From contig CALVUS010000001.1 in NCBI GenBank assembly GCA_944363665.1, positions 1 through 52,462 on the forward strand: a stretch of DNA of 52,462 bases. The letters are read 5' to 3'. This DNA is from an uncultured Bacilli bacterium (lineage in GTDB: Bacteria > Bacillota_I > Bacilli_A > RF39 > UBA660). Below the pieces are notes generated by a model. It ran no database searches and was not told the DNA's origin. It saw only the letters and a list, made by a program, of their open reading frames with translations. This document shows positions 10,045-47,278 of this stretch, one piece after another. A program made the translations under genes and the position numbers. Positions within the stretch are counted from its first letter, which is position 1. Each line of letters opens with the position of its first letter.

Positions 10045-10092
10045 ATAGGCGATTTAAAAGATATATTTTTGCTATGTAAAGGGGGTACTAAT

Positions 10093-11710: not shown

Positions 11711-11751
11711 TAAAACAAAAAAGTAGTTCATATAAAAGATATGAACTACTT
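11711..11751 (-). terminator. Rho-independent terminator closing the Tad-like operon
   Basis: 12-bp stem AAGTAGTTCATA / TATGAACTACTT (11721-11732, 11740-11751) followed on the minus strand by TTTTGTTTTA. Confidence 0.75.
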
Positions 11752-11768
11752 TACTATTTAAATTTTAT

Positions 11769-12122
11769 TTAGTCTCCAAAATTTTCGTTATAAGCATCTG
11801 TGCAAACGTCACCACCAGGACTAGAAATACATCTAGCACAAACTTCGTATTTATCACTTGTTGAAGTATCAACTAAACGAATAACAAATGATACAATTGT
11901 CGGTACAAAGAATATTGCTACAGCAGCAATACAACGCATTAATAATGATTTTGCTGCTTTAGATACTTCTTTATTATCACTCGAAATTACAGCCTTTCCT
12001 AAGTCTACCATTCCCAAAATAATCAAAATTATAGGAATTACAATTTTAAATACTAATAAAAAATATCCAACTGTTCGCCATATATTAGCAGTATCTGCGC
12101 AAAAAGTATCAACATTCCCCAT
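11769..12122 (-). CDS. VirB2/TrbC-like two-TM hairpin protein (pilin-like), paralog A
   Basis: 117 aa; two TM helices joined by a GKAVISSDNKEVSKAAKSL loop; Cys-containing C-terminal tail; clear paralog of 12179-12532 and of 49753-50205. Confidence 0.55.
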   Translation of the reverse strand: MGNVDTFCADTANIWRTVGYFLLVFKIVIPIILIILGMVDLGKAVISSDNKEVSKAAKSLLMRCIAAVAIFFVPTIVSFVIRLVDTSTSDKYEVCARCISSPGGDVCTDAYNENFGD

Positions 12123-12178
12123 AATTCTAACACTCCTCTCTTTTTCTAACTATATTTTACTCTATTACTCGTTTAAAG

Positions 12179-12532
12179 TCAATCTTTATTGGTAAAAATG
12201 CCTTCATTGTGACTAGTATCACATTTATCATTTGGTGAAGTAAGGCAATCAACACAATTTAAATAATCATCTTGTACTTCAGAAAAGCCACCTATAAAAT
12301 TAAAAAACACATTTATTATTGTGGGAATAAAGAAAATAACTATAGCAATTATAAATTTCTTTAATAATGATGATGCAGTTTTTGACATAGCTTTAGCATC
12401 ACTGTCCATTATAGCTTTAAAAAAATCTATCATTCCTAAAATTATCAAAACTAATGGCACTATAATTTTAATAATCATAATTGCATAACCTACAATTTGC
12501 CAAACCTTTGCTGTTTTGTAACAAAATTCCAT
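12179..12532 (-). CDS. VirB2/TrbC-like two-TM hairpin protein (pilin-like), paralog B
   Basis: 117 aa; same architecture (FKAIMDSDAKAMSKTASSL loop, FFIPTI second helix, CVDC...C tail). Confidence 0.55.
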   Translation of the reverse strand: MEFCYKTAKVWQIVGYAIMIIKIIVPLVLIILGMIDFFKAIMDSDAKAMSKTASSLLKKFIIAIVIFFIPTIINVFFNFIGGFSEVQDDYLNCVDCLTSPNDKCDTSHNEGIFTNKD

Positions 12533-12546
12533 ATTTTACACCCCCA

Positions 12547-13533
12547 TTATTTAAAAATACTAAATATTCCTGAGCCATTAGGATCTATTCTACTAAACCC
12601 TAAGGCAGATAAAAATGCATTAATAATTGGTTGATTATCCAATTTGTCATCCAAATACGGTAAATTGTAAAATACTTTACTTCCACTTTCTTTTTCAAAT
12701 TCCGATACATCTTTTTCCGATAATATACTCCGATTTAATACAATTTTTTTGCCTTTAAGTTCTTCAAAAATCATGTTATCTTTTCTAATTAATTTATTTA
12801 ATTGAATACGTCCAGGTTCTATTAGATAAATAATATCGTTACAATAATTAGTAACATCGCTATTATTTAAATCTACTAGTATAACATCACAATTAGAATT
12901 GCTAGCAATATAATCACTAAAATTCATACTGGAAATGCTATCTAAACTGGAATCATTAAAATATTCAAAATCATTTGCATCTATTTCTACTGCTTTTACT
13001 TTATACACTTTGTCCAAATGAATTTTCATCAAATATGTTAAAGTTGTTGCTCCAGCATGATCCGTAACATTTTTGATACCAATAACTTTTTGAGATATTT
13101 TACCTCTTGTTGTATCAACCGCATTTTCATTTAAAGCTGGTCTTTTGTAGCCATTAATATTATGAAAATTTGCTACATCTTTATAAGAATTTGGGTTATC
13201 TATCAAATATCTTATAACATTAATATCATTTGTAAAATTATATATCCCCATCGATATTAATTGTGAAATATACATTGGTGAATTTACAACCTCAGAATCA
13301 TCTAATAACAATATTACTTTGGACATATCAAAATTAACTGACAAATTTTGCATGGTTTTTATATCTTGATAATTTTTAATAGCAGTTATATCAATAATCA
13401 TTTTATTAAAATAGAAATTAGAAAACTGAGCTATTAATTCATCAACCGAAAACTCTCCATTTATACTTTTAATAATATCAATATCTAAACTAGCCAGTAA
13501 AGCTTGATATTTATTAGAAATTATTACATTCAT
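12547..13533 (-). CDS. tadZ: TadZ/CpaE-like protein: receiver-like N-domain plus ParA/MinD-like domain with degenerate Walker A
   Basis: 328 aa; position in the locus; P-loop-like VIGIKNVTDHAGATTLTY lacks the canonical GK[ST] lysine; a later hhhhD (VILVDLN) resembles a Walker B. Confidence 0.55.
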   Translation of the reverse strand: MNVIISNKYQALLASLDIDIIKSINGEFSVDELIAQFSNFYFNKMIIDITAIKNYQDIKTMQNLSVNFDMSKVILLLDDSEVVNSPMYISQLISMGIYNFTNDINVIRYLIDNPNSYKDVANFHNINGYKRPALNENAVDTTRGKISQKVIGIKNVTDHAGATTLTYLMKIHLDKVYKVKAVEIDANDFEYFNDSSLDSISSMNFSDYIASNSNCDVILVDLNNSDVTNYCNDIIYLIEPGRIQLNKLIRKDNMIFEELKGKKIVLNRSILSEKDVSEFEKESGSKVFYNLPYLDDKLDNQPIINAFLSALGFSRIDPNGSGIFSIFK

Positions 13534-14009
13534 ATTATTCCTCCGATCAAATTATTGCTGCCAACAAAGGAATTAGTTCTTCCATTTACATTAAATGTTG
13601 CTATATCTCCCAAAAAAGGTAAATTAAATCTATAAAATACAATTATATCGTAATAAATATAGTCACGTGAATCACTAGGTTGACTAACTTGAGAAAAACA
13701 ATAATAATATCTTGTTGCTCCATCAGCTTCTTCATAATTGCCTTCTAAGTCTATTGCTCCGTACCATTTTACGTTATCATCTTGAGGACAATTTCCCGTA
13801 GTAGTATAACTTTGACCTACTAAATAATTATTAATTATATCACTAGATTGGGAAGTTAAACCCTCATATTTTTCAATAATAGATAGCATTTCATTTTTTA
13901 CACGATAAGCTTTAGAATAGTTTAAAACAAGGGTTAAAAAACATGCAAAAATTAAAATGAATAAAATCATTATTTGAAAAACCCAAGTAGAACCTGATAC
14001 TTCTCGCAT
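13530..14009 (-). CDS. Pseudopilin-like (TadE/TadG-position) membrane-anchored protein, paralog 1
   Basis: 159 aa; short polar N-terminus (MREVSGS) then a hydrophobic helix; paralogous to 14024-14524 (shared ...VKNE(M/I)L(S/N)IIE... and ...YTTTGNCP/YRTTGTCP blocks). Confidence 0.45.
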   Translation of the reverse strand: MREVSGSTWVFQIMILFILIFACFLTLVLNYSKAYRVKNEMLSIIEKYEGLTSQSSDIINNYLVGQSYTTTGNCPQDDNVKWYGAIDLEGNYEEADGATRYYYCFSQVSQPSDSRDYIYYDIIVFYRFNLPFLGDIATFNVNGRTNSFVGSNNLIGGII

Positions 14010-14023
14010 AATCTTATCTCCTT

Positions 14024-14524
14024 TTAATTTTTATATATTATTCTAGTTTCACCTTTTGTTTGAAAATTATATAGTTGTTTAATAACTGGAATATCTAATT
14101 GATAAAACACCACTATTTGAACATAAGATCCATCAACAAAATCATCAGTAGCTACTGTTCCAGCACCTAGTTCTCCTTCCAGGTAACCATCTAATTCTGA
14201 AGTAACATTAACTTTTCTTATACAAACAGATGCTTCTTGGCCAGATGTCACTGGAGATCCATTACGTTGATATCCTTGATATTCATCAGGGCAGGTTCCC
14301 GTAGTTCGATAAGATGTTTCATTGATTGTATCAATTATATCTTCACTTAAATTGCCATTATCTCCTTCATATACTCCATTATTAGCTTCAATTATATTTA
14401 AAATTTCGTTTTTTACACCAAAAGCATTTGAATTATTAATTGTTAAGCACATAATTGCTGTAAATAGCAATACAAATAATATAAATATTTGAAAAATAGT
14501 TGTAATACTTATTGATTCCTTCAT
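14024..14524 (-). CDS. Pseudopilin-like membrane-anchored protein, paralog 2
   Basis: 166 aa; same architecture as 13530-14009. Confidence 0.45.
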   Translation of the reverse strand: MKESISITTIFQIFILFVLLFTAIMCLTINNSNAFGVKNEILNIIEANNGVYEGDNGNLSEDIIDTINETSYRTTGTCPDEYQGYQRNGSPVTSGQEASVCIRKVNVTSELDGYLEGELGAGTVATDDFVDGSYVQIVVFYQLDIPVIKQLYNFQTKGETRIIYKN

Positions 14525-14533
14525 TAAAACTCA

Positions 14534-14812
14534 CTATCCTCTATAAAGACAATCAAAGCTATTATCACTAGATCTGTCTTCCTCTTCATCATCCCAACAT
14601 GTGCAATACATTATTCCTTCTACTTCATGCAAACCAGGTAATCCTCTAATAGATTCTTCACTACAGTTGCAAACTGCCTTATTACATTGTGCAGTACTTG
14701 TAAAGTTAAAATCTAGCATTGGCCACAAAACACCGAAAAAAAAGGCCATCAAGACCCCAATTGATATCATAACAATTACTGCTAGATTTATTTCTCCTGT
14801 AGCCTCTTTCAT
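14534..14812 (-). CDS. Pilin-like protein with Cys-rich C-terminal extension
   Basis: 92 aa; MKEATGE leader-like N-terminus followed by a 22-25 residue hydrophobic helix; six Cys in the C-terminal half. Confidence 0.55.
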   Translation of the reverse strand: MKEATGEINLAVIVMISIGVLMAFFFGVLWPMLDFNFTSTAQCNKAVCNCSEESIRGLPGLHEVEGIMYCTCWDDEEEDRSSDNSFDCLYRG

Positions 14813-14829
14813 AATTCTTTACCAACTAT

Positions 14830-15087
14830 CTATTCAGAATCATCAGCTGCATCATCATATTGAATTGGATCACCTTCAGCACAGTAACATATCTTTTGAT
14901 CAGTATCAACTCCGCCAGATCCTTGTGTTGAATCTAATTTTCCACCAGGACACATATTAGAACATGTACTTCTTGCCAAACTAGTTTGAATACCAGGCCA
15001 AACTACAGCATAGAAGAATGCTCCTACAGCAACTATCGCAACGACAGTAACAACAGTCATATTTAATTCACCAGTCGCTTCTTTCAT
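14830..15087 (-). CDS. Pilin-like protein (probable major subunit) with Cys-containing acidic C-terminus
   Basis: 85 aa; identical MKEATGE N-terminus; hydrophobic helix; four Cys; strong RBS AAAGGAGGAA; its own promoter immediately upstream. Confidence 0.55.
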   Translation of the reverse strand: MKEATGELNMTVVTVVAIVAVGAFFYAVVWPGIQTSLARSTCSNMCPGGKLDSTQGSGGVDTDQKICYCAEGDPIQYDDAADDSE

Positions 15088-15119
15088 ATTAAATAAATTC
15101 CTCCTTTTACCATATTTTT

Positions 15120-15148
15120 ATTATAACTTATTTTTAAGTAAATATCAA
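15120..15148 (-). promoter_or_regulatory. Internal promoter TTGATA-N17-TATAAT in front of the pilin-like genes
   Basis: Minus strand: -35 = rc of 15143-15148, 17-nt spacer, consensus -10 = rc of 15120-15125, within the 84-nt gap between the tadC-like gene and the first pilin-like gene. Confidence 0.55.
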
Positions 15149-15171
15149 TTTTTTTTATTATGTAATGTCAA

Positions 15172-15960
15172 CTAAACATTCATCATTTGAACAACTGCAA
15201 GGATTAGCAAAACCATCAGTCCAGCTCCTGTAGCAATTAACATGCTCATAGTTTTGCCTTCCATCTTCTCCAAGCGATTTTTATAACGTGTCTCTCTAGC
15301 TTTTTGTTGCAAACTAGATATAGATCTTGAAAACATTAAAATTTGTTCTTGTTTACGTTCTTGACGACCTAAACTTAAACGATATAAAAGTCGCATCATT
15401 CTCATTGAATCACGAACAGGATATTTACGAGCAAATTCCATATAAGGTTCAATTGTATCATCACCAGCATTTATAGCATCAATCATTTCTTGTAACCCAT
15501 CTTTAAATATTTCCGGAGCATCTGCCATTGATTTACCAATTGCAACTGGAACAGTATAATGTTGAATAAGAATTTCTAAATTCTTTAAATAATGCGGTAA
15601 CATAGCATCTATTTGATGCATATGACGTGTATAGAATTTTTTAATATCACTATAAGGTTGCTTAAATATAAATATTCCCACAACAGCAATAATTAGTAAC
15701 TTTACAGCATTTAAGTCTTGAATCATGTATAAAAATAATAACACCATAACAATCAATGCATTTTTAATTCTTTTATTAAATAATACATCAGGATTCATAG
15801 CTGTACCATATTTAGCTCGAACATAAAAATCCCAATCACTTTCTTTAAGCCTTAAAAATAGCATTTGATTATCGCTAATCATTTGATTAATATTAATTTG
15901 TCCTGAAACTGTCATAATAAGAAAAACAATTACCGCTATAATAATAATTTCTACTTGCAT
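15172..15960 (-). CDS. tadC: TadC-like platform protein (T2SS-F/GspF-like fold)
   Basis: 262 aa; TM helices at the N-terminus, around residues 70-100 and at the C-terminus, flanking a cytoplasmic domain of about 130 aa; directly follows the tadB-like gene with a 1-nt overlap. Confidence 0.55.
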   Translation of the reverse strand: MQVEIIIIAVIVFLIMTVSGQININQMISDNQMLFLRLKESDWDFYVRAKYGTAMNPDVLFNKRIKNALIVMVLLFLYMIQDLNAVKLLIIAVVGIFIFKQPYSDIKKFYTRHMHQIDAMLPHYLKNLEILIQHYTVPVAIGKSMADAPEIFKDGLQEMIDAINAGDDTIEPYMEFARKYPVRDSMRMMRLLYRLSLGRQERKQEQILMFSRSISSLQQKARETRYKNRLEKMEGKTMSMLIATGAGLMVLLILAVVQMMNV

Positions 15961-16865
15961 TATTCCACCCCTACATCTTCATTATAATACTTTTCTCCAG
16001 AAAGAAGGAAAAAAGAATTGATAAGAACAACTGCATGTAGTATTAACTGAACGTACCAAATTTCGATAAGTTCAATATAGTTTTCTTCACCTAACATATA
16101 TCGTAAAACAACAACTAATAAATATAATGTTAAACCAAATTTGATAAAACGGCCATGAAAATTTTTACGATCCATTTGGTCACGATAAACACCTTCAACA
16201 AGAGCATCGATATCCATTGACATATTTTCTAAAGCTTGTCCTGAATCACGAGCACCTTCTTTAGTTATTTGTAAAAATAATTGATGCATATTTTTGACCA
16301 TATAATATGGGTACTTATTATTAAAATATTGAATAGATTCATCTATCGTTCCATTTTGATAAGACATTTCAATCATTTTTTTGACATCTTCTAAAACTGG
16401 ATTTTCTAAAATACCCGAATCTCTTACTCCTTCTAAAGCTTTTACAAAACTTTGAGTAGTATTAAATTCCATTATAACATTGGTTGTATAGGTTTGAATT
16501 TGTTCAAATAAAAATTCACTATAAATTCTTTGGCAACGTAAATATGCTAAATATGGAATAAAAGAAATAGCAACAATTGCATATATAGCAGCTATAATGA
16601 TACTGTAAAAATAAAAGTATCCTATTAAAACTGCAAAACCACCAAATAATAATACTTGTGTTATATATTGCCTAGTGGTATATTCTTGACCTAATTCAAT
16701 AGCTTTTTCGCGAACCATTTTGAATGAATAAGGAGCATATTTATCATATATTTTGGTTGCATTTCCCGCTACAAACTTATAAACGTTTTCACCAGGATTA
16801 CGACGATAAATTAAAACAAAAGCCGCTATAAGCAATAATATTACTAATTCTAAAAGTGTTCCCAT
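15960..16865 (-). CDS. tadB: TadB-like platform protein (T2SS-F/GspF-like fold)
   Basis: 301 aa; same TM/cytoplasmic-domain/TM layout; immediately downstream of the secretion ATPase. Confidence 0.55.
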   Translation of the reverse strand: MGTLLELVILLLIAAFVLIYRRNPGENVYKFVAGNATKIYDKYAPYSFKMVREKAIELGQEYTTRQYITQVLLFGGFAVLIGYFYFYSIIIAAIYAIVAISFIPYLAYLRCQRIYSEFLFEQIQTYTTNVIMEFNTTQSFVKALEGVRDSGILENPVLEDVKKMIEMSYQNGTIDESIQYFNNKYPYYMVKNMHQLFLQITKEGARDSGQALENMSMDIDALVEGVYRDQMDRKNFHGRFIKFGLTLYLLVVVLRYMLGEENYIELIEIWYVQLILHAVVLINSFFLLSGEKYYNEDVGVE

Positions 16866-16878
16866 ATTTACTCCTTTC

Positions 16879-17994
16879 TTATAAACTTTCTATTCCCATA
16901 ACCTCTGTATTATTGGCAATACTATTTTCTTCTTTAACAAAGTAATTAGGATCCATATCTACTCCTTGAACACCTAAATAAGCAATTAAATACTTACTAG
17001 GATTATTAAAAGAAAATTTGCCATCTAAGCTTTTTTTAAATAAAATATTTGATTTTGCTTCATTATTATCATCAACATAAAATTCTACTACTTCTATTAT
17101 TTCTCTTTGGAATCTTCCTAATTCTTTACTCATATAGCCTTTAACATGAATACCAATCTGAACATAACGATGAATAGATTTTAAAAATTGATCTATATCT
17201 TGACTACTTTCTAACAAACTATACATCCGCATTGGAATATTTAAAGCTCTATCTGAGTGAATAGTAGAAATAATATTATGCCCAGAGGAAATAGAGTTAC
17301 GAACAGCAGTAACTGCCTCTGCAGAACGAACTTCTGATAACAATATCCATCTTGGATTTTGCCGCATACAAGTAACTAAAACATCAGAATATGAAGCAAT
17401 ATTATTAGTTTTCATAGCAACTATATCACGATGGGGAAAAATTTTATCCAAATGTAATTCTAGTGTATCTTCAATGGTAATTATTTTTTCATTTTCTTTA
17501 GTATGACTGGCTAAATATTTAACTAGTTCTGTTTTCCCACTCCCAGTTTCACCACTAACAATTATATTGCAGTGTCCTTCTACACAAGTCATTAAAAAAT
17601 CATGAAGATTTTCAGTAACATATTGTTCATTTAACAACTTTTCTTTATTTAGACGGATTTTGGCAGGCGTCTTTCTTATTAAGCAAGCAATTCCATTTGT
17701 AGCAATTGAATCATGAACAAAATTAAGACGTAATTCTGCAGATTCGGCATCCAAAAAAGGATGAGCCATATTAAAAGTTTTACCCATAACATTTGAACAT
17801 TGAAAAGCTAATTTTTCCATTAATGCATTATTTATTTCTGGTCTTTCAACACGATAAACACCCTTATTAAGAGTTTTTAGCCAAACTTGACCACCATTAG
17901 AATATGAAACGTCAGTTATATTATCTTCTTCTAAAAACTCTTTTAAAGGTCCAAAATCTATTTGTGAAAATATTGCATCATTCACACTTGTCAC
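16879..17994 (-). CDS. tadA: CpaF/TadA-family secretion ATPase (VirB11/GspE superfamily)
   Basis: 371 aa; Walker A SGETGSGKTE, ITIEDTLEL Asp box, MRQNPRWILLSEVR Walker B region, STIHS His box. The true start may be the second in-frame GTG (17985), 6 nt after GAGGTG. Confidence 0.85.
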   Translation of the reverse strand: MTSVNDAIFSQIDFGPLKEFLEEDNITDVSYSNGGQVWLKTLNKGVYRVERPEINNALMEKLAFQCSNVMGKTFNMAHPFLDAESAELRLNFVHDSIATNGIACLIRKTPAKIRLNKEKLLNEQYVTENLHDFLMTCVEGHCNIIVSGETGSGKTELVKYLASHTKENEKIITIEDTLELHLDKIFPHRDIVAMKTNNIASYSDVLVTCMRQNPRWILLSEVRSAEAVTAVRNSISSGHNIISTIHSDRALNIPMRMYSLLESSQDIDQFLKSIHRYVQIGIHVKGYMSKELGRFQREIIEVVEFYVDDNNEAKSNILFKKSLDGKFSFNNPSKYLIAYLGVQGVDMDPNYFVKEENSIANNTEVMGIESL

Positions 17995-18000
17995 CTCTTT

Positions 18001-18765
18001 TTAATTATTAATATCTAATACCATACTATCAATTAATTGATTTAATGCTAAATTAGAGTAAGCAGTTTCAGCACCTTCAATTGTATATAATTTATTCCTT
18101 GGAACTGGATATAAATCCCAATTTAAATATTCAATCCAACTTAGATACTCAAACATTTCGGTTGGTACTGCAAAAGATAACCATGCAGGTGTTCTTACTT
18201 CATTGCCGTCAAATACATTTTGACCATTAGAATCTTTTACAGAAACCACATCTATACTAGTAATAAATTCATCATAAACAATTTGACCGTCAAGACTTGC
18301 TCTTAACCATAAATCTATTTTATCTCCTGGATATATTGAATTTGCATAAGTACTAGTATTATCAACCTTTAACCAATATAAAGTATACCCATTTGGTAAG
18401 TCTTCTTGTTCTCTTTCTTTTAAATCTTCTCGATCTACTACTTGACTAGTATAAAACATAGCACCTTCCTTAATCGATGTTTCATTCTTGACATATCTAC
18501 CAACTAATTGCGATGTAGAAGTAATAACACTAGCATTTTTTAAAAATTCACTATTTACTTCTACAAATTCAAAATCTTCTGAAGTAATTTCCTCTGTAGC
18601 TGTTATATCTCGAGTAGCAACTGGTACTCGTTGTGGATTTACAGCATTACTTACTGTCATATTATAGAAAAACCATAGCACTATTACTCCTGCTAGAACT
18701 GCTAAAATTGTCACTGTATTACGATTTAATAAAAATTTTCGCAAATTATTAATAATATTTCCCAT
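18001..18765 (-). CDS. cpaB: CpaB/RcpC-like Flp pilus assembly protein (SAF domain), paralog 1
   Basis: 254 aa; N-terminal TM helix, then RVPVATRDITATEEITSEDFEFVEV... typical of the CpaB SAF domain. Confidence 0.7.
   Translation of the reverse strand: MGNIINNLRKFLLNRNTVTILAVLAGVIVLWFFYNMTVSNAVNPQRVPVATRDITATEEITSEDFEFVEVNSEFLKNASVITSTSQLVGRYVKNETSIKEGAMFYTSQVVDREDLKEREQEDLPNGYTLYWLKVDNTSTYANSIYPGDKIDLWLRASLDGQIVYDEFITSIDVVSVKDSNGQNVFDGNEVRTPAWLSFAVPTEMFEYLSWIEYLNWDLYPVPRNKLYTIEGAETAYSNLALNQLIDSMVLDINN
18307..18354. repeat. 48-nt tract identical to 19095-19142 inside the two cpaB paralogs
   Basis: ccataaatctattttatctcctggatatattgaatttgcataagtact occurs in both genes (encodes STYANSIYPGDKIDLW), while the flanking DNA is diverged. 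Confidence 0.9.
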
Positions 18766-18767
18766 TT

Positions 18768-19553
18768 TTATCCTCCGTTTGAGTAATCAGCACCCATATC
18801 CATAGTTTTATCTTTAATTATCTGTAAAAGTTGCTCATTAGATATTTCCGTTGCCCCACTTTCAGTATTATACAATTTATTTCTTGGGACTGGAGTTATA
18901 CTAATGTCTGATATAAATTCTGCAATTTTTAAATAACGGTACATATCAGTAGGAACCGCAAATAACAACCAAGCAGGTGTTCTTCCACTTGTTACATCAA
19001 ATACATTTTGGCCAGAAGAATCTCTTACTGCCAATACTTCAATTCCCGAAATAAATTCACTAAAAACTAGTAAACCGTTTTGTCTAGTTTGCATCCATAA
19101 ATCTATTTTATCTCCTGGATATATTGAATTTGCATAAGTACTTACATTATTAACTTGCAATTGATAAATAGTATATCCATCTGGAATTTCATCAAATATC
19201 GAATTTGGCAACTCTTCCTTTTCAACTACTTGAGTTGTATAAAACATACCACCTTCAGGAATGGATGTACCTGTACTAACATATTTACCAACTAAATCAT
19301 TGACATTTGTTATAACATCAGCATCACTTAAAAAACGATTGCTAATTTCTACCATTTCTATATCATCTTGAGTAATTTCCGAAGTTGCAGATAAATCTTT
19401 ATTTGCCACCGGAACTCGTCTTGGATTAACGGCATTGTTAACTCGATATGTATAAAAACCAAACAATACCGCTACTCCAACAACAAATCCTAAAATAGTT
19501 ACTGTTGTCTTATTGGTAAAAAATCTTTTAAAAGTTCCTATTAGACCTCCCAT
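18768..19553 (-). CDS. cpaB: CpaB/RcpC-like Flp pilus assembly protein (SAF domain), paralog 2
   Basis: 261 aa; RVPVANKDLSATSEITQDDIEMVEI...; collinear paralog of 18001-18765. Confidence 0.7.
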   Translation of the reverse strand: MGGLIGTFKRFFTNKTTVTILGFVVGVAVLFGFYTYRVNNAVNPRRVPVANKDLSATSEITQDDIEMVEISNRFLSDADVITNVNDLVGKYVSTGTSIPEGGMFYTTQVVEKEELPNSIFDEIPDGYTIYQLQVNNVSTYANSIYPGDKIDLWMQTRQNGLLVFSEFISGIEVLAVRDSSGQNVFDVTSGRTPAWLLFAVPTDMYRYLKIAEFISDISITPVPRNKLYNTESGATEISNEQLLQIIKDKTMDMGADYSNGG

Positions 19554-19571
19554 TTTATTCCTCCATTTTTA

Positions 19572-19979
19572 TTAAAGTGCATTACCTTCAATTATTGCAT
19601 CAATTCTTTCTACCATATCAAACGATTCTGGATCTCCAACAACATTAAAGGTATTTGATTTACTTTTAACCTCAACACTGACCTTTGGTGGCGCTTCATA
19701 AACCCCATAAAAACTTACAGTATATGTTGTAGATAAAGAAGCAGTTTCAGCAAATCTTCTCAAAAAGCTTTCATAAAATTTTTCTTTATTAATTTTAATT
19801 TCGCCATAACTTCGATAATAAGAATAATCTACCGCATCTACTAAAGCTGCTTCTGTTATTTCTTTTATCAAATAATAATCTTGAGTACTAGAAGTAGTTA
19901 AGTTTTGTACTAATAACATTATAACTACCACAAATATTCCGAGTAATATTAGCCAGTATCCCCAAAATGCATTTTTCAT
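19572..19979 (-). CDS. Hypothetical membrane-anchored protein of the Tad-like operon
   Basis: 135 aa; one N-terminal TM helix; no recognisable motif. Confidence 0.5.
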   Translation of the reverse strand: MKNAFWGYWLILLGIFVVVIMLLVQNLTTSSTQDYYLIKEITEAALVDAVDYSYYRSYGEIKINKEKFYESFLRRFAETASLSTTYTVSFYGVYEAPPKVSVEVKSKSNTFNVVGDPESFDMVERIDAIIEGNAL

Positions 19980-19992
19980 TACTTATTCACCC

Positions 19993-22900
19993 CTACTTCC
20001 ATGATGGACCACCAATAACTGTTAGAGCACCAGAATTTTCTTGTAAAGTTGGCATTTCCCATGTACTCCATAATGTCCAATATCCATCAGCATTAGCAGC
20101 ATCATTGTCATCAGATCTACTACCAACTGGAGTTCTATTATATACAGTAATATCATCACCATAATCAGCAATTAACTCATCAATTACTTCACTATAACAG
20201 TATATATCAGGAACTACTGTACCATCTTCCAAAGTAGCATCATAACATGTTAACGTATCATTAGCATAGCCACCAGAGCCTTCAGCAGAAGCATTAATGC
20301 TTTTCAATTCATTAATTAAATCAGATGTAAGTCTAACGCTAAATGCTAAAGATGAATCATCACCAGTTTTATCATAAATCATTTCATTTTCAGTTTCTAT
20401 TTCATCGATCGTAGCCTCAGCTTTATCAACTAAAAGTTGTAATGGAGCCATACTAGTAGTAATATTCCAATTTGTCCAATCTTCAGCAGTTGTCCAGTTA
20501 TATCCAGGTTGTCTATCTACAGAATTGACATCTGTTGATATGATTGGTTTTACATTAATGTCTAATTCATCTAAATTAAATATGCAGTTTACACAATCAA
20601 ACACACATTCTGGACAGTCAACCCATTCACAGCCATCTTCATCACATTCAAAATCACAATTTGGACATTCAGGGGAACGACAATCACTTTCATAATAACA
20701 TAAATAATTACCATCAAAAGTTTCTTCGTCAATACCTTTAGCATATGCAACACTTTCGTCATTTATTTCGATTTCAGTAGTTCCATCTGGATTAACGTCT
20801 AATCTTACAACATCTATTAATCTACCTAATTCACCATCATCATAAAATTCACCAAGGTCTTCAATTAATAATTGATATATTCCTCCACCAACAACACTAG
20901 TAGATACTGGCAATACATTTTCTAAAGCTTCCAATTGCAATTTATCGCCAGCATAATCATTTACAATCGTTATTTTGCCATTAGCAGCTATTTGATAAAA
21001 CACAGTTGGAGTTTCATAGCTTTGAGCTTTTTTAACAGTTTTTCTAATAAATCTTGCTTGAGAAATATCTCTAGAATCGGTTTCACAGCCATCACCAGCA
21101 AAACAAACAACATAATCACGATTTTCATAAGCACCAGATACATTAGATGCATAATTCCATTCATCTATATCTTGAATATCTTGAGTAATATTTCCAGCTT
21201 CTGTTGGATCGTCACTATCTGTTTCACCAGTCATATCAAATACATCACTAGCGCCTTCACAAACATATTTATCATCCGCAGTTTCATAACAAACTTCAAT
21301 TTCACTTTCATATTCAAATTCATCTTCAATAGGAATTAAATAATCAGCATCAGTTATAGATGATTGTTTTAACAAATCATAATATGTTGTGAACATTGGT
21401 TCATCTTCACCACGGAATTCATTATAGAAATATTTAATTTTTTGATTAAATTGATATACATTTTCCCACATTCCAGTACATGCATTTAAATCTGTAATCA
21501 ATTTTTGATAATCTTCATAAGCTTCCTCTAAATCTTCTTCTGCTTGATCACGTTTTTCTTGCCAATCTTCTAACCAGTCATCATATTTCTCATTCGCTGA
21601 TTCATCTATTCCGCCGCAACAATGCTTTGTACATCCTCCTTCAGGTGATACATCACAGCAATAATGATTATGACTATCCGTAAATGATGTTCCTGAATCA
21701 TCTATATTTTCTGAAGAAAAATATCCATTTTCATTAACAAATGAAAATTCATAACTTAAATAATCATCCCACTCAATTTCTATAGTGTCTCGTTTAGTAC
21801 CGTAACCGCATTCCCCTTCTATTGTATTTTCAATCCAACTTTCTACTCTAGCATTTGCAGCATTCCATCTATTCATGGCATCTACCATTCTACTTTGAGC
21901 ACTTTCAATTTCATCAAGATATTTTTCTATATCTATTCCCATATCATCTACTGTACCTGCTGTATAACAATCTTTTTTACCTTCAACTCGTGCTGTTAAT
22001 TTGAAATTTGTACCACAGTTTACATCAGAAATAATTGGATCTAATGTAATTCCGCCTAAAGCTTCTTCATTATCTGTCCAACTAATATAATCTTCTTTAC
22101 AGTAAACTGAACAAAATTCATTGTCTGAATTTACACCACCATTTTCTTCAGAAAGTAAATAACTATTTTGAGCTTCATCAGTATTATTTAATATACATTT
22201 TTTGATTTCTTCTGAAGTATAAACATTGGCAACAGCATCTTCTTCATCATCACTACAAACCGGAACTTCTATAACAGTTTCACAAATTTCGCTTTGTTCT
22301 GCACATGTAATTCTGCCACTAACTTCACCAGTTTGAGCTCCACCTTCTTCATCAGCTTTAGCTACCACGAAAAATCTTTGAGTATTTGTTGTACTAGGTC
22401 TTAATAAAGCACCGTAATATTCAACACTTGTATCATGATAATCATAGCTTAAAGTAAAATCTGCTGCTGTACATTCTTCAATAGTCAAATCTTTAGAAAC
22501 TAAAATACGAATTCTAATTATTCCACTTCTTTTATCTTGAGTACCAGTCAAAGATCCAGTTGGCAAAGCCTTAGAAATATCTGTACTAGCATCCAATGTA
22601 GCCCAGTCAGTAGTTTCGGTAGAATATTCAATGGATTCAATTGTAATTCCATTAGCATTACATTGTGGACAATCCAATTGAACATTATTTATATATCCAT
22701 CTTCAGCAGCAATATTGTTGACTTCCATATTGATATAAACATATTCAGTTGCTGTAGTTTCATTTTGTTCTACAGATTCTGTATCGCCAACTCTCGCATC
22801 AATAGAAAAAGCTAAATTTTTGTTTCTATAATAATCTGATGCTGCTTCAACTCCTAATCTAAACAATTTTTGAGCAGCATAGATAACGTTATAAGAAGTA

Positions 22901-23577
22901 CTTCCTTCTGCTCCATAAATCATAACAATATTAGGATCATACCAGCTACCATACTTTCCAGCGATATATCTTTGGATGCATGCTTGATCATTTGTCGTAC
23001 AGCTATTTAATCCAGGAACTATTTCTGTAGCTCCCATGCCACTATAAATTGTTGCCCAATGAACACCTAGATTTATTAAAGATGATCCTTTTGCTCGATA
23101 TGCGGCAGATAATGTTGCATTACCACCCCAACCATAAAGTCCCATTGTAAATGCCCGTTGAGCTATACTTGTAGCTAAATAAAGGTCATTGCCACTAACA
23201 ACAGTTCCGTTATCTAAAGTTAAACTAGAATTAAATTGATTATATCCATTTGCTAAAATAGCTAATATCCCATGATCATATGAATTTACTTCATCATGTT
23301 GGCTATCTGCTCCTAAAATACGATCTATTGTATATGAGCCTCCACCTTGAAGATGTGGATCTTCACAGTATGTTACATAATCTTTACCATTTACACTACT
23401 ATGATATTTTATTTCACCATTATAAGTATAATTCCCATATCTAAGACCATCAGCTGTTACAGTCCCATCTTTTACAATAGAAAAGCTAGCACCTTCACTA
23501 AAATCAATAGCTTTAACTTCATTAAAGCCTACAATAAACATTAAACCTAATATTAATAATTTTACACTTTTTTTCAT
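19993..23577 (-). CDS. Large secreted Cys-rich acidic protein, putative adhesin with an N-terminal thioester-(TQXA)-like domain
   Basis: 1194 aa; signal peptide ...NEVKA/IDF; YCEDP (Cys71), ANGY, then LYLATSIAQRAF (Gln140), resembling the YC..P / GY / ATQxA(I/V)W pattern of Cys-Gln thioester domains; 10 Cys in 39 residues at DNA 20584-20700; no LPXTG motif or C-terminal TM helix. Confidence 0.6.
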   Translation of the reverse strand: MKKSVKLLILGLMFIVGFNEVKAIDFSEGASFSIVKDGTVTADGLRYGNYTYNGEIKYHSSVNGKDYVTYCEDPHLQGGGSYTIDRILGADSQHDEVNSYDHGILAILANGYNQFNSSLTLDNGTVVSGNDLYLATSIAQRAFTMGLYGWGGNATLSAAYRAKGSSLINLGVHWATIYSGMGATEIVPGLNSCTTNDQACIQRYIAGKYGSWYDPNIVMIYGAEGSTSYNVIYAAQKLFRLGVEAASDYYRNKNLAFSIDARVGDTESVEQNETTATEYVYINMEVNNIAAEDGYINNVQLDCPQCNANGITIESIEYSTETTDWATLDASTDISKALPTGSLTGTQDKRSGIIRIRILVSKDLTIEECTAADFTLSYDYHDTSVEYYGALLRPSTTNTQRFFVVAKADEEGGAQTGEVSGRITCAEQSEICETVIEVPVCSDDEEDAVANVYTSEEIKKCILNNTDEAQNSYLLSEENGGVNSDNEFCSVYCKEDYISWTDNEEALGGITLDPIISDVNCGTNFKLTARVEGKKDCYTAGTVDDMGIDIEKYLDEIESAQSRMVDAMNRWNAANARVESWIENTIEGECGYGTKRDTIEIEWDDYLSYEFSFVNENGYFSSENIDDSGTSFTDSHNHYCCDVSPEGGCTKHCCGGIDESANEKYDDWLEDWQEKRDQAEEDLEEAYEDYQKLITDLNACTGMWENVYQFNQKIKYFYNEFRGEDEPMFTTYYDLLKQSSITDADYLIPIEDEFEYESEIEVCYETADDKYVCEGASDVFDMTGETDSDDPTEAGNITQDIQDIDEWNYASNVSGAYENRDYVVCFAGDGCETDSRDISQARFIRKTVKKAQSYETPTVFYQIAANGKITIVNDYAGDKLQLEALENVLPVSTSVVGGGIYQLLIEDLGEFYDDGELGRLIDVVRLDVNPDGTTEIEINDESVAYAKGIDEETFDGNYLCYYESDCRSPECPNCDFECDEDGCEWVDCPECVFDCVNCIFNLDELDINVKPIISTDVNSVDRQPGYNWTTAEDWTNWNITTSMAPLQLLVDKAEATIDEIETENEMIYDKTGDDSSLAFSVRLTSDLINELKSINASAEGSGGYANDTLTCYDATLEDGTVVPDIYCYSEVIDELIADYGDDITVYNRTPVGSRSDDNDAANADGYWTLWSTWEMPTLQENSGALTVIGGPSWK

Positions 23578-24338
23578 ATTTCACTACTCCTACGTCTTTT
23601 TATAATTACAACCACTACTATCCCCACTATTACAACTAAACTAATTCCTCCTACTATAAAAGGAACTTTATGTTCAGATATAAATTTTCCTATAGACTCC
23701 AACCAAGATAAATCTTCTTCATCATTAGCATCACCGTTTTGGATTCTATCTACCTCAGCAGTAACATTATCAATAAAATCTGCAAAATCTATATCACCAA
23801 ATGTAACATATTCTTGACATAAATAATAATCAGATGCCACTTCACACATACCATAAGTTGAATAACTATTATATCTTGGCAATGTCAAAGTCATTGTCCT
23901 TATAGTGTCATCTTGACATCCATTATTGCCAGTTGATTTGACAGTTATTGTCAATCTTGCAACTTCGGACACGTCATTCCATTCAATAGCCAATGTGCCA
24001 TTATTAGTATCTGAAAAATTATATCTTGTTACATCGCTAGATTTATCACTACTTACTTCGATATAAAGATTTTCAGTTAAATTTAAAATGTTAATTTGCA
24101 AATAATCTGTCTTTGGAACCCAAGTTTCTTCTTCTTCGGTTCCTAAAATAGAATCTGGAGGCCCATATAAATTAGGATCTAATTCTTTTTCTTTAATTTC
24201 ATAATTTGCTCTTATCTCACTAGCTTCATTATTTAAAGTTGCCCTTTGGGTATAATCACAAGTACCAACCGCCTTTGCTGTACCAATAAACATTCCAAAA
24301 ACAGCTAGTGATAAAAATATATATTTCAATCTATACAT
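23574..24338 (-). CDS. Secreted, C-terminally tail-anchored protein (first gene of the operon)
   Basis: 254 aa; signal peptide ...GTAKA/VG; C-terminal TM helix plus KRRRSSEI; ATGA overlap with the 1194-aa gene. Confidence 0.55.
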   Translation of the reverse strand: MYRLKYIFLSLAVFGMFIGTAKAVGTCDYTQRATLNNEASEIRANYEIKEKELDPNLYGPPDSILGTEEEETWVPKTDYLQINILNLTENLYIEVSSDKSSDVTRYNFSDTNNGTLAIEWNDVSEVARLTITVKSTGNNGCQDDTIRTMTLTLPRYNSYSTYGMCEVASDYYLCQEYVTFGDIDFADFIDNVTAEVDRIQNGDANDEEDLSWLESIGKFISEHKVPFIVGGISLVVIVGIVVVVIIKRRRSSEI

Positions 24339-24551: not shown

Positions 24552-25112
24552 TTAAACTTCAAGCCAATTACCGGTACCTGCAGCATCCGCTAGTAATTCA
24601 CCACTTTGTCCTAAGCCAGATGATGAAGATGTACAGAATGGAATAACTGTCTTACCACTAAAGTCATTAGCTTCAACAAATGTATTTACTGGCCAAGCAG
24701 CAATACCCCACCATATTGGGTAACCAATAATTATAGTATCATAATCATCCCAATTAGGTACTTCTGTTGAGAGTAATTCAACATCACGTAATGATTCATC
24801 TTCATGTTCACGAGAAACTCGAGAGTCATCATCTGTCCAATCTAAATCATCAGATGTATATTCATCTACAGGCACTATTTCAAAAATATCTGCTTCAATA
24901 TTGTTAGCAATTTGCTCTGCAACAGCCTCTGTATGTCCTTGAGCTGAGAAATAAACAACTAAAGTTCTTTCACCAGAAACATTTACATTTTCATTACTAT
25001 TGCTATTATTATTATTTTCATTATTATCTTTATTATTTAAGAAAAGAATTAAAACTATTCCAACAATAATTACCACTAATACAATTAATACAACAGCTAT
25101 TTTTTTATTCAC
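24552..25112 (-). CDS. Flavodoxin-like protein with N-terminal TM anchor and poly-Asn linker
   Basis: 186 aa; KK-TM helix, NNKDNNENNNNSNSNEN linker, then LVVYFSAQGHTEAVAEQIA... and a WW/CTSSS flavodoxin-like core. Confidence 0.75.
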   Translation of the reverse strand: MNKKIAVVLIVLVVIIVGIVLILFLNNKDNNENNNNSNSNENVNVSGERTLVVYFSAQGHTEAVAEQIANNIEADIFEIVPVDEYTSDDLDWTDDDSRVSREHEDESLRDVELLSTEVPNWDDYDTIIIGYPIWWGIAAWPVNTFVEANDFSGKTVIPFCTSSSSGLGQSGELLADAAGTGNWLEV

Positions 25113-42427: not shown

Positions 42428-42484
42428 TGGATTACTTCCTTTCTTAACAAATATTATACAACATTTTCTTAATTATGAAAATTG

Positions 42485-44912: not shown

Positions 44913-44926
44913 TTAAACCACCTTAA

Positions 44927-46711: not shown

Positions 46712-47278
46712 TTACATCACCGCCCCAAAGTTTGTTTGTTCGCCACCATTTAAGAAATTATCCAAAATAACTCTTAAATCGTTATTAGAAGCTTGTGTTG
46801 ATTGCAAACCAGCACTAGCAAGACCACTGATTAAATTATGAATTTTTTTCTGAACAAGCTCTAATCTTTTTTCTTTAAATAATATATAGTATTCAGTATC
46901 AACAACATTGTATTCAACACTTGTAAATAAATTTGCTTTATTTATATCTTGCATAATTAATTTTTTAATTGCATTATTTTGAGAATTATTATACATAAGC
47001 TGCAATTGTGATACATAAACATCAATATCAACAGGACGATCTGCAATAAGTAACCAAAACTCAAAATCAATACTATTATAAAAATTTCTTAAATTATAAA
47101 TAACATTATTTTGAGTTCCAGCATCTAAAATGAATATATTTCTTGGTGTTATTTTAACACCAGTAACATAAGATCCATCTTGTAATTGAATCATTCCATT
47201 TATTATTTGTCTTATAGGAAGCCAATCCTCTGTATAATTTTTACTATTATCAACTGCACTATTCAACTTCTGAGTCAT
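46712..47278 (-). CDS. virB4: VirB4 N-terminal domain encoded as a separate ORF
   Basis: 188 aa; DWLPIRQIINGMIQLQDGSYVTGVKITPRNIFILD resembles the N-termini of PrgJ/TcpF-type VirB4 proteins; same frame as and contiguous with 44927-46711. Confidence 0.6.
   Translation of the reverse strand: MTQKLNSAVDNSKNYTEDWLPIRQIINGMIQLQDGSYVTGVKITPRNIFILDAGTQNNVIYNLRNFYNSIDFEFWLLIADRPVDIDVYVSQLQLMYNNSQNNAIKKLIMQDINKANLFTSVEYNVVDTEYYILFKEKRLELVQKKIHNLISGLASAGLQSTQASNNDLRVILDNFLNGGEQTNFGAVM

Follow-up and report, generated by a model that had tools for sequence, protein, structure and literature searches.

We studied a stretch of 52,462 nucleotides from an uncultured Bacilli bacterium (contig CALVUS010000001.1, hereafter the window), in which 15 co-directional open reading frames (ORFs), named g01 to g15, lie head to tail on the minus strand from position 24338 to 11769. 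Our reading, to which we give a probability of roughly 0.72, is that this operon encodes a divergent type IVc-related (Tad-like) filament machine of the Firmicutes DUF5411/DUF4320 class, acting as a contact module in cooperation with a type IV secretion system (T4SS). Taken part by part, a Tad-like filament machine of the DUF5411 class is highly probable, and the functional coupling of the operon to the T4SS stands at even odds. We infer that the class is the contact-forming module of Gram-positive conjugation-type T4SSs (those of pLS20, pZB18 and pXO1-like plasmids), and that it is chromosomal and vertically inherited here. The genes (sizes in amino acids, aa) and signals of the operon were the following:

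23574-24338, minus strand: g01, 254 aa, ORF with a signal peptide, an extracellular part with 4 Cys and a C-terminal membrane anchor followed by KRRR
19993-23577, minus strand: g02, 1194 aa, secreted, acidic, Cys-rich giant protein (Sec-type signal peptide, 37 Cys, 19% Asp+Glu)
19572-19979, minus strand: g03, 135 aa, DUF5411 protein with a pilin-like leader (MKNAFWG) and a hydrophobic helix (Pfam DUF5411, PF17424, E = 9.3e-58)
18768-19553, minus strand: g04, 261 aa, CpaB/RcpC-like protein with SAF domain (SAF 1.5e-6, RcpC 3.4e-4, TIGR03177 3.7e-9)
18001-18765, minus strand: g05, 254 aa, second CpaB/RcpC-like protein (SAF 1.3e-6, TIGR03177 1.9e-10)
16879-17994, minus strand: g06, 371 aa, CpaF/VirB11-clade secretion ATPase, the putative motor (Pfam T2SSE 6.6e-28)
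15960-16865, minus strand: g07, 301 aa, polytopic membrane protein, candidate TadB-like platform (remote T2SSF, by transitive profile matches)
15172-15960, minus strand: g08, 262 aa, polytopic membrane protein, candidate TadC-like second platform (family profile matches to plasmid proteins)
15120-15148, minus strand: putative internal sigma-70-type promoter preceding the pilin-like genes, in the g08-g09 gap (TTGATA-17-TATAAT, 11 of 12 consensus positions)
14830-15087, minus strand: g09, 85 aa, pilin-like protein with leader MKEATG, a hydrophobic helix and a variable Cys-containing C-terminus (ortholog alignment)
14534-14812, minus strand: g10, 92 aa, second pilin-like protein, 6 Cys (hhalign against g09, 99.9%)
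14024-14524, minus strand: g11, 166 aa, minor-pilin-like protein with an N-terminal helix and a globular part (hhalign against g12, 100%)
13530-14009, minus strand: g12, 159 aa, minor-pilin-like protein with leader MREVSG, putative distant DUF4320 relative (family profile)
12547-13533, minus strand: g13, 328 aa, cytoplasmic protein with an N-terminal alpha/beta domain and a predicted C-terminal MinD/ParA-class fold, degenerate P-loop TDHAGATT (AlphaFold2, Foldseek)
12179-12532, minus strand: g14, 117 aa, two-helix hairpin, T4SS_pilin (VirB2-like) protein (against g15: hhalign 100%, BLASTP 4e-28)
11769-12122, minus strand: g15, 117 aa, T4SS_pilin (VirB2-like) hairpin (PF18895 1.5e-4; NF045849, pilin-like conjugal transfer protein, 0.011)
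11720-11752, minus strand: intrinsic terminator after g15 (14-bp stem, 5-nt loop, T run)

The coordinates of all 15 ORFs agreed with a preliminary description of this DNA, which had proposed one operon with small gaps or overlaps: adjacent ORFs overlapped by at most 4 bases or were separated by 2-18 bases, with two exceptions, the g08-g09 gap of 84 bases and the g14-g15 gap of 56 bases. The four tandem paralog pairs pointed out there (g04/g05, g09/g10, g11/g12 and g14/g15) were all recovered with hhalign probabilities of 99.9-100%, and the operon does open with an anchored secreted protein followed by a 1194-aa Cys-rich one. Orthologs of g01-g15 were found with their order kept in most of the 83 related loci examined (designated by L numbers; flanks of ±10 kb were included for the peptidase search, see below), and the ratio of nonsynonymous to synonymous substitution rates (dN/dS) was below 1 for every gene; g01-g15 are therefore real genes. 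The flanking genes, whose linkage to the core had been left to comparison with relatives, turned out to be syntenic with it. The cytoplasmic and membrane core is under strong purifying selection (dN/dS 0.03-0.13 for g03, g06, g07, g08 and g13) and exposed parts evolve fast (0.36-0.58 for g01, g02 and g09; 0.36-0.51 for g01 itself), all these ratios being rough given that dS was saturated near 1.

Among the transcription signals, a hairpin was found at 11752-11720, where a terminator had been expected, and the internal promoter at 15120-15148 was recovered in the form given above. In 45 relatives its -35 and -10 hexamers are conserved, as is an AAGGAGG ribosome site, amid bases that vary, and the putative promoter before g09/g10 is in these terms strong and conserved. 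The promoter proposed upstream of g01 fared less well: the site is present at 24388-24360 but matches only 9 of 12 positions and belongs to a class of sites found at chance level, and a second candidate lies at 24549-24522 (10 of 12). Both count for little, because promoter-like matches are no commoner in the window than in shuffled AT-rich DNA (78 found, 84 expected from shuffled sequence).

The earlier proposal of a Tad-like type IV filament operon in a monoderm is supported by the ATPase, CpaB, platform and pilin-like proteins. The putative motor g06 can be placed with certainty in the CpaF/VirB11/FlaI clade. The four NTPase boxes claimed for it are visible in the translation (Walker A, GETGSGKT; an Asp box; a Walker B-like box, RQNPRWILLSEVR; a His box), and its best PDB match was CpaF with 70 bits, VirB11 and FlaI reaching 61 bits. 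Scores against the NCBIfam models of VirB11, TadA and TrbB were 95-117 bits, all far below their cut-offs, and those against Firmicutes plasmid 'CpaF/VirB11' proteins were 160-195 bits; in tblastn searches of plasmids the best matches were likewise 'CpaF/VirB11 family' genes of Firmicutes plasmids, with 31-34% identity. An exact-sequence look-up of g06 returned no matching record. The proposed CpaB with a SAF domain was confirmed in both g04 and g05, whose SAF matches (about 1e-6) lie above the cut-off and whose RcpC and TIGR03177 matches (1.9e-10 to 3.4e-4) lie below theirs. The two are paralogs (hhalign 100%), the g04 family hidden Markov model (HMM) matched a B. cereus plasmid 'RcpC/CpaB family' protein with E = 1.6e-26, and together they supply the RcpC/CpaB component that marks a Tad pilus. 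Orthologs of g05 numbered only 27 and distant loci were single-copy, so that the duplication is limited to closer relatives.

Direct Pfam or NCBIfam matches of note were limited to g03-g06 and g15. Neither g07 nor g08 had one, and profile searches of PDB sequences, one with a broadened g07 alignment included, gave chance matches only. Their description as two distantly paralogous T2SSF-like platform proteins appears supported, if only transitively, because plasmid homologs of g07 match T2SSF and the two families are paralogous to each other. The g07 family profile matched a Priestia 305-aa 'type II secretion system F family' protein (E = 1.2e-13; hhalign 93.9% over 236 columns), and Pfam T2SSF (PF00482) matched the g07-family homologs of Priestia (3.4e-5), B. 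cereus (1.8e-4) and pXO1 (0.014), in all three in the same central region and just below the gathering score (24.2 vs 25.2 bits for Priestia). The g08 family HMM matched hypothetical 279-aa proteins of Priestia (3.4e-16; hhalign 96.8%) and B. thuringiensis (5.6e-14) and gene 39 of pLS20 (1.7e-5). When profiles combined lineage and plasmid sequences, the g07-like and g08-like families aligned over 220 columns (hhalign 95.9%, E = 5.2e-9); paralogy was negative with lineage-only profiles (probability 2%) and with BLASTP, and positive only once the plasmid homologs were added. A pair of paralogous single-domain platform proteins is the hallmark of type IVc systems and is present in monoderm Tad systems (PMC6916266). 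Of the earlier assignment of the 301- and 262-aa proteins as GspF-like, then, the indirect part stood and a direct HMM match did not materialise. An exhaustive search of representative sequences with the g07 profile outlined a small family of 273 representatives, mostly fragments, in which the distant full-length members have no Pfam domain.

Five proteins, g03 and g09-g12, share one leader type, M[KR]E..G or MK..(Y/F/L)WG followed by a hydrophobic stretch. Because two of the five are tiny and stand behind the strong conserved promoter, this is the pattern expected of a type IV major and minor pilin set, putatively processed at Gly. In g09 and g10 the leader MKEATG is followed by Glu and about 20 hydrophobic residues; the N-terminal MKEATGEL of g09 is identical in 58 of 58 orthologs, whose C-terminal half is hypervariable with only the cysteines kept, and the leader motif of g10 recurs in 47 of 55. 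The Pfam models Flp_Fap, N_methyl and TadE did not match g09 or g10, and the 115 pilin-like orthologs gave no Flp_Fap match and scattered matches at E of at least 0.01 (archaeal Pilin_N, 0.013, four members; PF13400, 0.04-0.09, three members). We call these proteins pilin-like and not Flp because they lack the Flp motif, carry an acidic residue at +1 and have no convincing pilin HMM match. The pilin-like label given earlier to the 85- and 92-aa proteins thus went without a Pfam or NCBIfam match, and is upheld by their size, the short Gly-ending leader, the hydrophobic helix and a gene position equal to that on plasmids (see below).

The larger members of the set connect with plasmid families. 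The g03 family HMM matched gene 36 of pLS20 (8.5e-8; hhalign 82.9%) and a hypothetical 149-aa protein of pXO1 (2.7e-8). Links of g11 to DUF4320 proteins were weak; the g12 family HMM matched plasmid DUF4320 proteins (6.2e-6 and 5.3e-5), a hypothetical 120-aa protein of pZB18 (1.3e-4) and gene 40 of pLS20 (1.4e-3). The hhalign probabilities of g12 with DUF4320 proteins were only 5-24%, Pfam DUF4320 matched neither g11 nor g12 directly, and g12 gave E = 0.09 with the Pfam 'Tad' model PF13400. In L001-L003 the g11 ortholog is 507 aa long and carries a Peptidase_M15 domain (PF01427) behind the pilin-like N-terminus, and four more loci have orthologs of 505-524 aa; such a protein is perhaps a 'modular' minor pilin with a peptidoglycan peptidase used for wall crossing. 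Among the long orthologs were:

L001, 13484-15007: long g11 ortholog
L010, 13445-14962: long g11 ortholog
L011, 13461-15035: long g11 ortholog
L017, 13449-14993: long g11 ortholog
L024, 13497-15020: long g11 ortholog

The protein g13 had been called TadZ-like. Its consensus GxKNVTEHAGATTL, followed by VDLN and VLNRS, was read as a MinD/ParA-type layout without the P-loop (Walker A) lysine. The AlphaFold2 model contained two alpha/beta domains (predicted local distance difference test, pLDDT, 62.7; predicted template modelling score, pTM, 0.51), and a Foldseek search with the C-terminal domain retrieved the SIMIBI NTPases SRP54/FtsY, HypB, UreG, ParA (3cwq) and ParF (4dzz) with E from 1e-5 to 1e-3 and template modelling scores of about 0.5 for targets of ParA size. 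No Pfam, NCBIfam or PDB-sequence match was obtained, hence none to solved TadZ, and hhalign with the AAA_31 proteins encoded where plasmids would have TadZ gave 24.7% (E = 7.9e-4) over 167 columns, the whole domain. The predicted MinD/ParA-class fold therefore speaks for the earlier label and the missing TadZ match does not; a 'TadZ-like architecture' is plausible but not proven for the modelled protein.

The hairpin proteins g14 and g15 tie the operon to conjugation systems, as their earlier description as a terminal conjugative-pilin-like pair implied. PF18895 (T4SS_pilin) was matched by 45 of the 70 members of their family (best, 4.9e-8), with g15 itself reaching 22.2 bits, below the 26.6-bit cut-off. 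By BLASTP, g15 also matched (5e-10) a 155-aa protein encoded beside VirB6 at 49753-50220, which belongs to a further feature of the window:

40250-50220, minus strand: separate T4SS module with genes for a VirB2-like protein (155 aa), a VirB6-like protein (716 aa), a 188-aa protein, VirB4 (594 aa), a 537-aa protein, a 273-aa protein and VirD4 (725 aa)

In this module VirD4 belongs to the CD1115 family (1.9e-87, above the cut-off), VirB4 matched NF045975 (7.4e-106) and the VirB6-like protein NF045848 (5.9e-18). The 155-aa protein has a signal peptide and its gene lies directly upstream of the VirB6-like gene. The 594-aa VirB4 aligns only with positions 294-891 of NF045975, which makes the 188-aa ORF its probable split-off N-terminus; the 273-aa and 537-aa proteins have no assigned family. 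The module sits between housekeeping genes, with leuS just beyond. It is about 28 kb away from the Tad-like module in the window, and the two are contiguous in some species: T4SS orthologs follow the operon directly on the same strand in L046, L048, L049, L050, L067, L073 and L078, and partly in L038, L057 and L066. The VirB4 proteins of these contiguous loci are 72-78% identical to the window copy, and in L048, L073 and L078 genes of the g14/g15 type directly precede VirB6. Because the T4SS module directly follows the operon in about ten relatives, the g14/g15 end is best explained as the edge of a T4SS module at its junction with the Tad-like module, and the module at 40250-50220 is the likely functional partner of g14/g15. 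VirB2-like hairpin proteins adjoin virB6 in most Gram-positive conjugative plasmids (bioRxiv 10.64898/2025.12.18.695078), and relaxase-less T4SSs with tandem PF18895 genes are known from Patescibacteria (PMC12102498). In some relatives the VirB2-like hairpin also forms the last ~100 residues of longer proteins (340-491 aa), which begin with a signal peptide and an extensive extracellular part and are encoded between the operon and VirB6:

L046, 15984-17006 and 17083-18312: long hairpin proteins
L048, 15972-17075: long hairpin protein
L057, 17272-18648 and 18679-20154: long hairpin proteins
L078, 11290-12468: long hairpin protein

At the other end of the operon, g01 had no family match in Pfam or NCBIfam, and its orthologs were first in the operon in every case with only 23-51% identity; for g02, neither Pfam and NCBIfam nor PDB gave a match. 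Every replicon encodes a large secreted protein in the slot directly before DUF5411, but its family differs from one replicon to the next: on plasmids we found there unrelated Ig-like, SpaA-like and PQQ-propeller proteins and, in pLS20, the adhesin Tie, which is needed for efficient mating in liquid (PMC8557374). Because of its position in the slot held by Tie, g02 is by analogy most likely the adhesin of the system, and g01 its anchored partner. Residues 960-998 of g02 (window 20600-20700) form a dense Cys cluster, CRSPECPNCDFECDEDGCEWVDCPECVFDCVNC, with ten Cys in 39 residues and no known domain, which could be a metal-binding site or a disulfide knot.

The window has about 28% G+C, with no break in composition at the operon. 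It carries the housekeeping genes cysS, gltX, trxB and leuS (by reading) and lgt (Pfam) and the peptidoglycan enzymes PBP5-type carboxypeptidase and VanY, and no relaxase, integrase or recombinase domain was found among its scanned ORFs; on these grounds the operon is chromosomal, in a wall-bearing monoderm. No tRNA gene and no Rfam family was found in the window. The 935-aa ORF downstream of the operon is uvrA, 69-91% identical to its counterparts in related loci, of which the L001-L003 copies show UvrA domains; in about 30 relatives the operon occupies the same place, followed by a convergent ORF of about 510 aa and then uvrA.

In a genome collection with one genome per species, g06 had at least 559 matching stretches; across the best 80 of these the ATPase is 78-93% identical. 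The sources of the best 80 were metagenome-assembled genomes (MAGs) labelled uncultured Bacilli, Tenericutes or Mollicutes, Clostridium sp. CAG:609 and Candidatus Onthocola, the last being Bacilli incertae sedis in NCBI. Gut lineages labelled Tenericutes or Mollicutes have small genomes. Homologue searches with g06, g07 and g13 returned thousands of sequences each, those of g06 from gut metagenomes; among the homologs listed, identity was at least 74% for g13 and at least 79% for g06 and g07, without annotation and with little alignment depth.

Three side observations concern the surroundings of the operon and its relatives. The convergent 514-aa ORF at 10069-11613 (plus strand) has no family match; its product is membrane-anchored at the N-terminus and contains 10 Cys and an Asn/Ser/Thr-rich, PSEP-type linker. 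In 28 related loci this ORF likewise lies between the operon and uvrA, and it may encode a further surface protein of the system. The gene at 24552-25112 (minus strand), immediately upstream of the operon, encodes a flavodoxin (Flavodoxin_4, 2.9e-39) whose N-terminal membrane anchor and Asn-rich linker would put the flavodoxin domain on the cell exterior; none of the related loci shows synteny of this gene with the operon. In L027, L028, L029, L037, L040, L055, L061-L063, L076 and others, tblastn found no match to g09-g15 downstream of g08; the pilin/VirB2-like half may lie elsewhere in these genomes or be too divergent for detection.

Put together as a mechanism, an unlinked prepilin peptidase would cleave the five leaders after Gly, and the g06 hexamer would turn the g07/g08 platform so that g09 and g10 polymerise into a thin filament, primed by g11/g12 and perhaps g03. 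The g04/g05 proteins would form a ring or conduit through the wall zone, analogous to RcpC, which forms a conduit (PMC12307814); wall remodelling might be aided in some relatives by the Peptidase_M15 domain fused to g11, and g13 would be a non-catalytic scaffold. The fast-evolving secreted g02 and the membrane-anchored g01 would serve as adhesin. The pilus would bring another cell or a surface into contact, upon which the VirB2/VirB6/VirB4/VirD4 channel would act, probably in contact-dependent transfer.

Several results weigh against this picture. Curated thresholds for Tad, type IV pilus (T4P) or type II secretion system (T2SS) components were reached only by the ATPase and SAF domains. There is no Flp G/XXXXEY motif, and the Glu is at +1 (MKEATG then ELN), not at +5. 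The AlphaFold2 models of g07 and g13 were both of low confidence (pLDDT 57.6 and 62.7); that of g07 came from a shallow alignment (79-96% identity) and its Foldseek matches were noise resembling G-protein-coupled receptors, which we disregarded, and TadZ itself was outside the top 50 Foldseek matches of g13. The links to pLS20 genes 38-40 were weak (E from 6e-4 to 1e-3 in a set of 37 sequences; hhalign 2-12%). In agreement with the earlier observation that the locus encodes no prepilin peptidase, the G.GD.K motif of peptidase A24 was absent from the 52-kb window and from the ORFs of the 83 loci with their flanks, the polytopic window ORFs that were checked or read being Lgt, a VTT-domain protein, MscS and ABC permease-like proteins; a peptidase at a separate locus is possible in monoderm Tad systems, as in B. 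breve (PMC6916266). Finally, cooperation with the T4SS is suggested by gene linkage in relatives and on plasmids, and filament, transcript and phenotype are all predictions from the genes alone.

Three of the other explanations, an adhesion pilus, an uptake device and a secretion pseudopilus, share the machine proposed here and differ only on its use. In the first, which we regard as somewhat unlikely, the operon would suffice by itself for a Tad/Flp adhesion pilus of the ordinary kind, serving to colonise the gut as in B. breve, and the VirB2-like genes and the T4SS would be mere neighbours. The ATPase, CpaB, two platforms and small and minor pilins do make up a complete minimal monoderm Tad set (compare PMC6916266), the adhesin-like g01/g02 evolve fast, like colonisation factors, and the operon ends before any VirB6 or VirB4 gene in the window and in 26-30 close relatives. 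However, g14/g15 are kept in the operon, ahead of the terminator, in most relatives, and in about ten relatives T4SS genes run on in the same direction; the ATPase, DUF5411 and platform proteins have their nearest homologs in the transfer regions of plasmids, and the canonical Tad HMMs do not recognise the set.

A bolder proposal goes beyond cooperation and is doubtful in its full extent: the Tad-like pilus and the VirB2/VirB6/VirB4/VirD4 channel would be one domesticated, conjugation-derived organelle, a vertically inherited core feature of a reduced-genome lineage, used for attachment and for uptake or exchange of DNA or other macromolecules, partner-dependent as in Patescibacteria. As a corollary, the 'VirB11' regions of pLS20, pXO1 and others would be an unrecognised Tad-like mating pilus.

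A competence-like apparatus for DNA uptake, in which the pilus captures DNA and the T4SS imports it, is distinctly unlikely. The small genomes of the Tenericutes and Mollicutes, labels borne by several of the matching genomes, would suit it, and neither the T4SS module nor the rest of the window yielded a relaxase. Precedents for such a device are the Tad pilus of M. luteus, which mediates uptake (PMC6916266), and archaeal Ups/Ced. Set against this, no ComEA, ComEC, DprA or DNA-binding domain was found among the scanned window proteins, VirD4 fits export at least equally well, and g09/g10 are acidic (14-16% Asp+Glu vs 5% Lys+Arg), which is unfavourable for DNA binding.

It is very unlikely that the operon belongs to a mobile element as its mating-pair module, being a piece or decaying remnant of an integrated conjugative element. 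Homologous modules do occur on conjugative or mobilizable plasmids, VirD4, VirB4 and VirB6 are in the window, and the usual substrate of a coupling protein is relaxase-bound DNA. But the checked window ORFs include no relaxase, integrase or recombinase, base composition does not shift, cysS, gltX, leuS, lgt and uvrA surround and separate the two modules, and the place beside uvrA is kept in about 30 relatives. The identity of at least 78% of the ATPase across the best 80 species-level genomes, together with the low dN/dS of the core (0.03-0.13), fits vertical inheritance under selection.

Highly improbable, in turn, is a T2SS-like pseudopilus that exports g02 (and g01) through the wall and builds no long external filament: g01/g02 come first in the operon in every case, the Clostridial DUF5411 operon was classed as 'secretion-related' (PMC9523054), and Tad machines can be contact-dependent devices and not long pili (PMC8460266), but g02 has a Sec-type signal peptide of its own, the hypervariable g09 C-terminus is as expected for an exposed filament surface and the dedicated strong pilin promoter fits an abundant subunit. 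A phage or defence-island origin (no supporting genes), a Com pilus (ComGA model 79 bits vs a cut-off of 300, no ComG-type pilins) and an archaellum (no FlaJ-type fused platform) were rejected.

We return to the Tad-like contact module for comparison with known systems. The preliminary description took this combination of genes to be undescribed for any Tad, Com or T4P system, which does not hold: the same layout exists on Bacillus plasmids, a more weakly matching collinear one leads into VirB2-like, VirD4 and VirB6 genes in pLS20-type and pZB18 operons, and a Clostridial operon was flagged in 2022. The gene orders of the plasmid loci were:

Priestia koreensis plasmid: Ig-like protein of 993 aa, DUF5411, SAF, hypothetical 274 aa, ATPase, T2SSF 305 aa, hypothetical 279 aa, hypothetical 128 aa
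B. cereus NZ_CP053963.1: large beta-propeller protein, 159 aa, RcpC/CpaB, AAA_31 protein, ATPase, T2SSF protein, 279 aa, 80 aa, 82 aa, DUF4320, 222 aa, 335 aa
B. thuringiensis pSY27.1_9 and pXO1: sets closely similar to that of NZ_CP053963.1
pNARUSE (pLS20-like): Tie adhesin (gene 34), gene 36 (DUF5411, 1.4e-5), gene 37 ('putative VirB11'), genes 38 and 39, gene 40 (DUF4320, 5.8e-3), two identical copies of the 47-aa gene 41, the 76-aa gene 45, VirD4, VirB6
E. faecium pZB18: plan as in pLS20; the large protein is SpaA-like (1209 aa), and a gene annotated as TrbC/VirB2, at the place of gene 45, precedes VirD4 and VirB6

The plasmid loci of the Bacillus cereus group and Priestia (NZ_CP053963.1, pSY27.1_9, pXO1 and NZ_CP061869.1) resemble the operon in having a large surface protein, DUF5411, CpaB and the ATPase, continued collinearly by TadB-like and TadC-like proteins, tandem pilin-like genes of about 70-80 aa and DUF4320, to which g12 may be distantly related. 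Family profiles of g03, g04, g06, g07, g08 and g12 matched their products significantly; in sets of 32-37 sequences, E ranged from 1.7e-49 (gene 37 of pLS20) to 3.5e-60 for g06 and was 6.4e-19 and 1.2e-13 for g07 and 3.4e-16 and 5.6e-14 for g08. A DUF5411 gene just upstream of the CpaB/ATPase genes is a position shared by L084, L089 and pLS20. The plasmids differ in that CpaB and the ATPase are separated by an AAA_31 (TadZ-like) gene; in this operon the second CpaB fills that place, and g13 follows the minor-pilin-like genes instead. Their pilin leaders have about 20 residues, as opposed to 6 here, ATPase identity with the Firmicutes plasmid homologs, Priestia included, is about 32-33%, and this operon is chromosomal.

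Tandem tiny genes (47, 67/68 and 80/82 aa) lie right after the platform-like genes of these plasmids, and each encodes a polar leader and one hydrophobic helix:

L086 (pNARUSE), 14568-14711 and 14738-14881: tandem tiny genes
L087 (pXO1), 12671-12874 and 12947-13153: tandem tiny genes
L088, 10829-11071 and 11129-11377: tandem tiny genes

Those of the Bacillus plasmids (67-82 aa), in the g09/g10 position, have leaders that end in NG|M or SG|M. All of these tiny genes resemble unannotated pilins of Flp size, which would mean that a Tad-like pilus is encoded by pXO1 and by the 'VirB11' region of pLS20.

The likeness extends along genes 34-45 of pLS20 and the corresponding region of pZB18: an adhesin, DUF5411 (36), an ATPase (37, matched by g06 with 1.7e-49), two membrane proteins (38 and 39), DUF4320 (40), a duplicated tiny helix protein (41) and a 76-aa protein (45), a two-helix hairpin by reading of its sequence, followed by VirD4, VirB6 and VirB4. 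Unlike this operon, pLS20 has no CpaB and no g13-like gene, and it is a plasmid with a MOBP-type relaxase, whereas none was found in the window. Genes 36 and 38-41 of pLS20 are listed as unknown, and pilus components have been reported as not encoded (PMC8557374); we infer that the region of genes 36-41 is Tad-like. A literature search, whose coverage was incomplete and which does not prove absence, found nothing joining pLS20 or pXO1 with Tad/CpaF or DUF4320.

With the Tad/Flp pili of B. breve, Micrococcus luteus and Bulleidia extructa the operon shares an ATPase of the wider CpaF clade, two paralogous single-domain platforms and CpaB/RcpC. It further has very small pilin-like proteins, two larger putative minor pilins and an accessory protein of predicted MinD/ParA-class fold as candidate counterparts, and its peptidase may be encoded elsewhere, as in B. 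breve. It departs from them in that only the generic ATPase and SAF curated models are reached, in the leader MKEATG|E without the Flp motif, in the DUF5411 and DUF4320-type proteins, in the duplicated CpaB and the g13 without P-loop lysine, and in having a giant Cys-rich protein with its anchored partner first and VirB2-like genes last. The Clostridial 'secretion-related' operon with CpaF, PilC/GspF and DUF5411, left uncharacterised (Miller et al. 2022, PMC9523054), is alike by its description: ATPase, platform protein, DUF5411 and a large adhesion/invasion-type protein, abundant in gut Firmicutes. It differs in its eight to nine genes, in its hosts (Roseburia, Ruminococcus and Eubacterium) and in that no VirB2-like or T4SS link was reported. 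The MPF_FATA-type T4SSs of Patescibacteria likewise belong to uncultured bacteria with reduced genomes and combine chromosomal VirB4/VirB6 without a relaxase with tandem T4SS_pilin genes, and type IV pili are needed there for host contact (PMC12102498). Patescibacteria are another phylum, their pili are neither Tad-like nor co-operonic with the VirB2-like genes, and VirD4 is present here.

The comparison brings out Tad-like machines of Firmicutes as one coherent class that is very widespread (at least 559 stretches, one genome per species) and ties it to Gram-positive conjugation operons, whose means of cell contact, especially in liquid, are still being worked out; the connection is testable in Bacillus subtilis with pLS20. 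For the uncultured gut Bacilli, the conserved pilus and the T4SS, for which the window yielded no relaxase, suggest that contact-dependent exchange is a core trait, and the operon offers a minimal monoderm model with an unusual Gly|Glu leader and no linked peptidase. Already known are homologous collinear systems, common on Firmicutes plasmids and in Clostridia and almost entirely unannotated and unstudied. New here are the chromosomal version, with no relaxase found and its order kept in dozens of MAG species across an uncultured gut Bacilli lineage, and its particular features: the duplicated CpaB, the six-residue leader with Gly|Glu, the relocated P-loop-less MinD/ParA-class protein, the giant Cys-rich protein and the retained VirB2-like genes.

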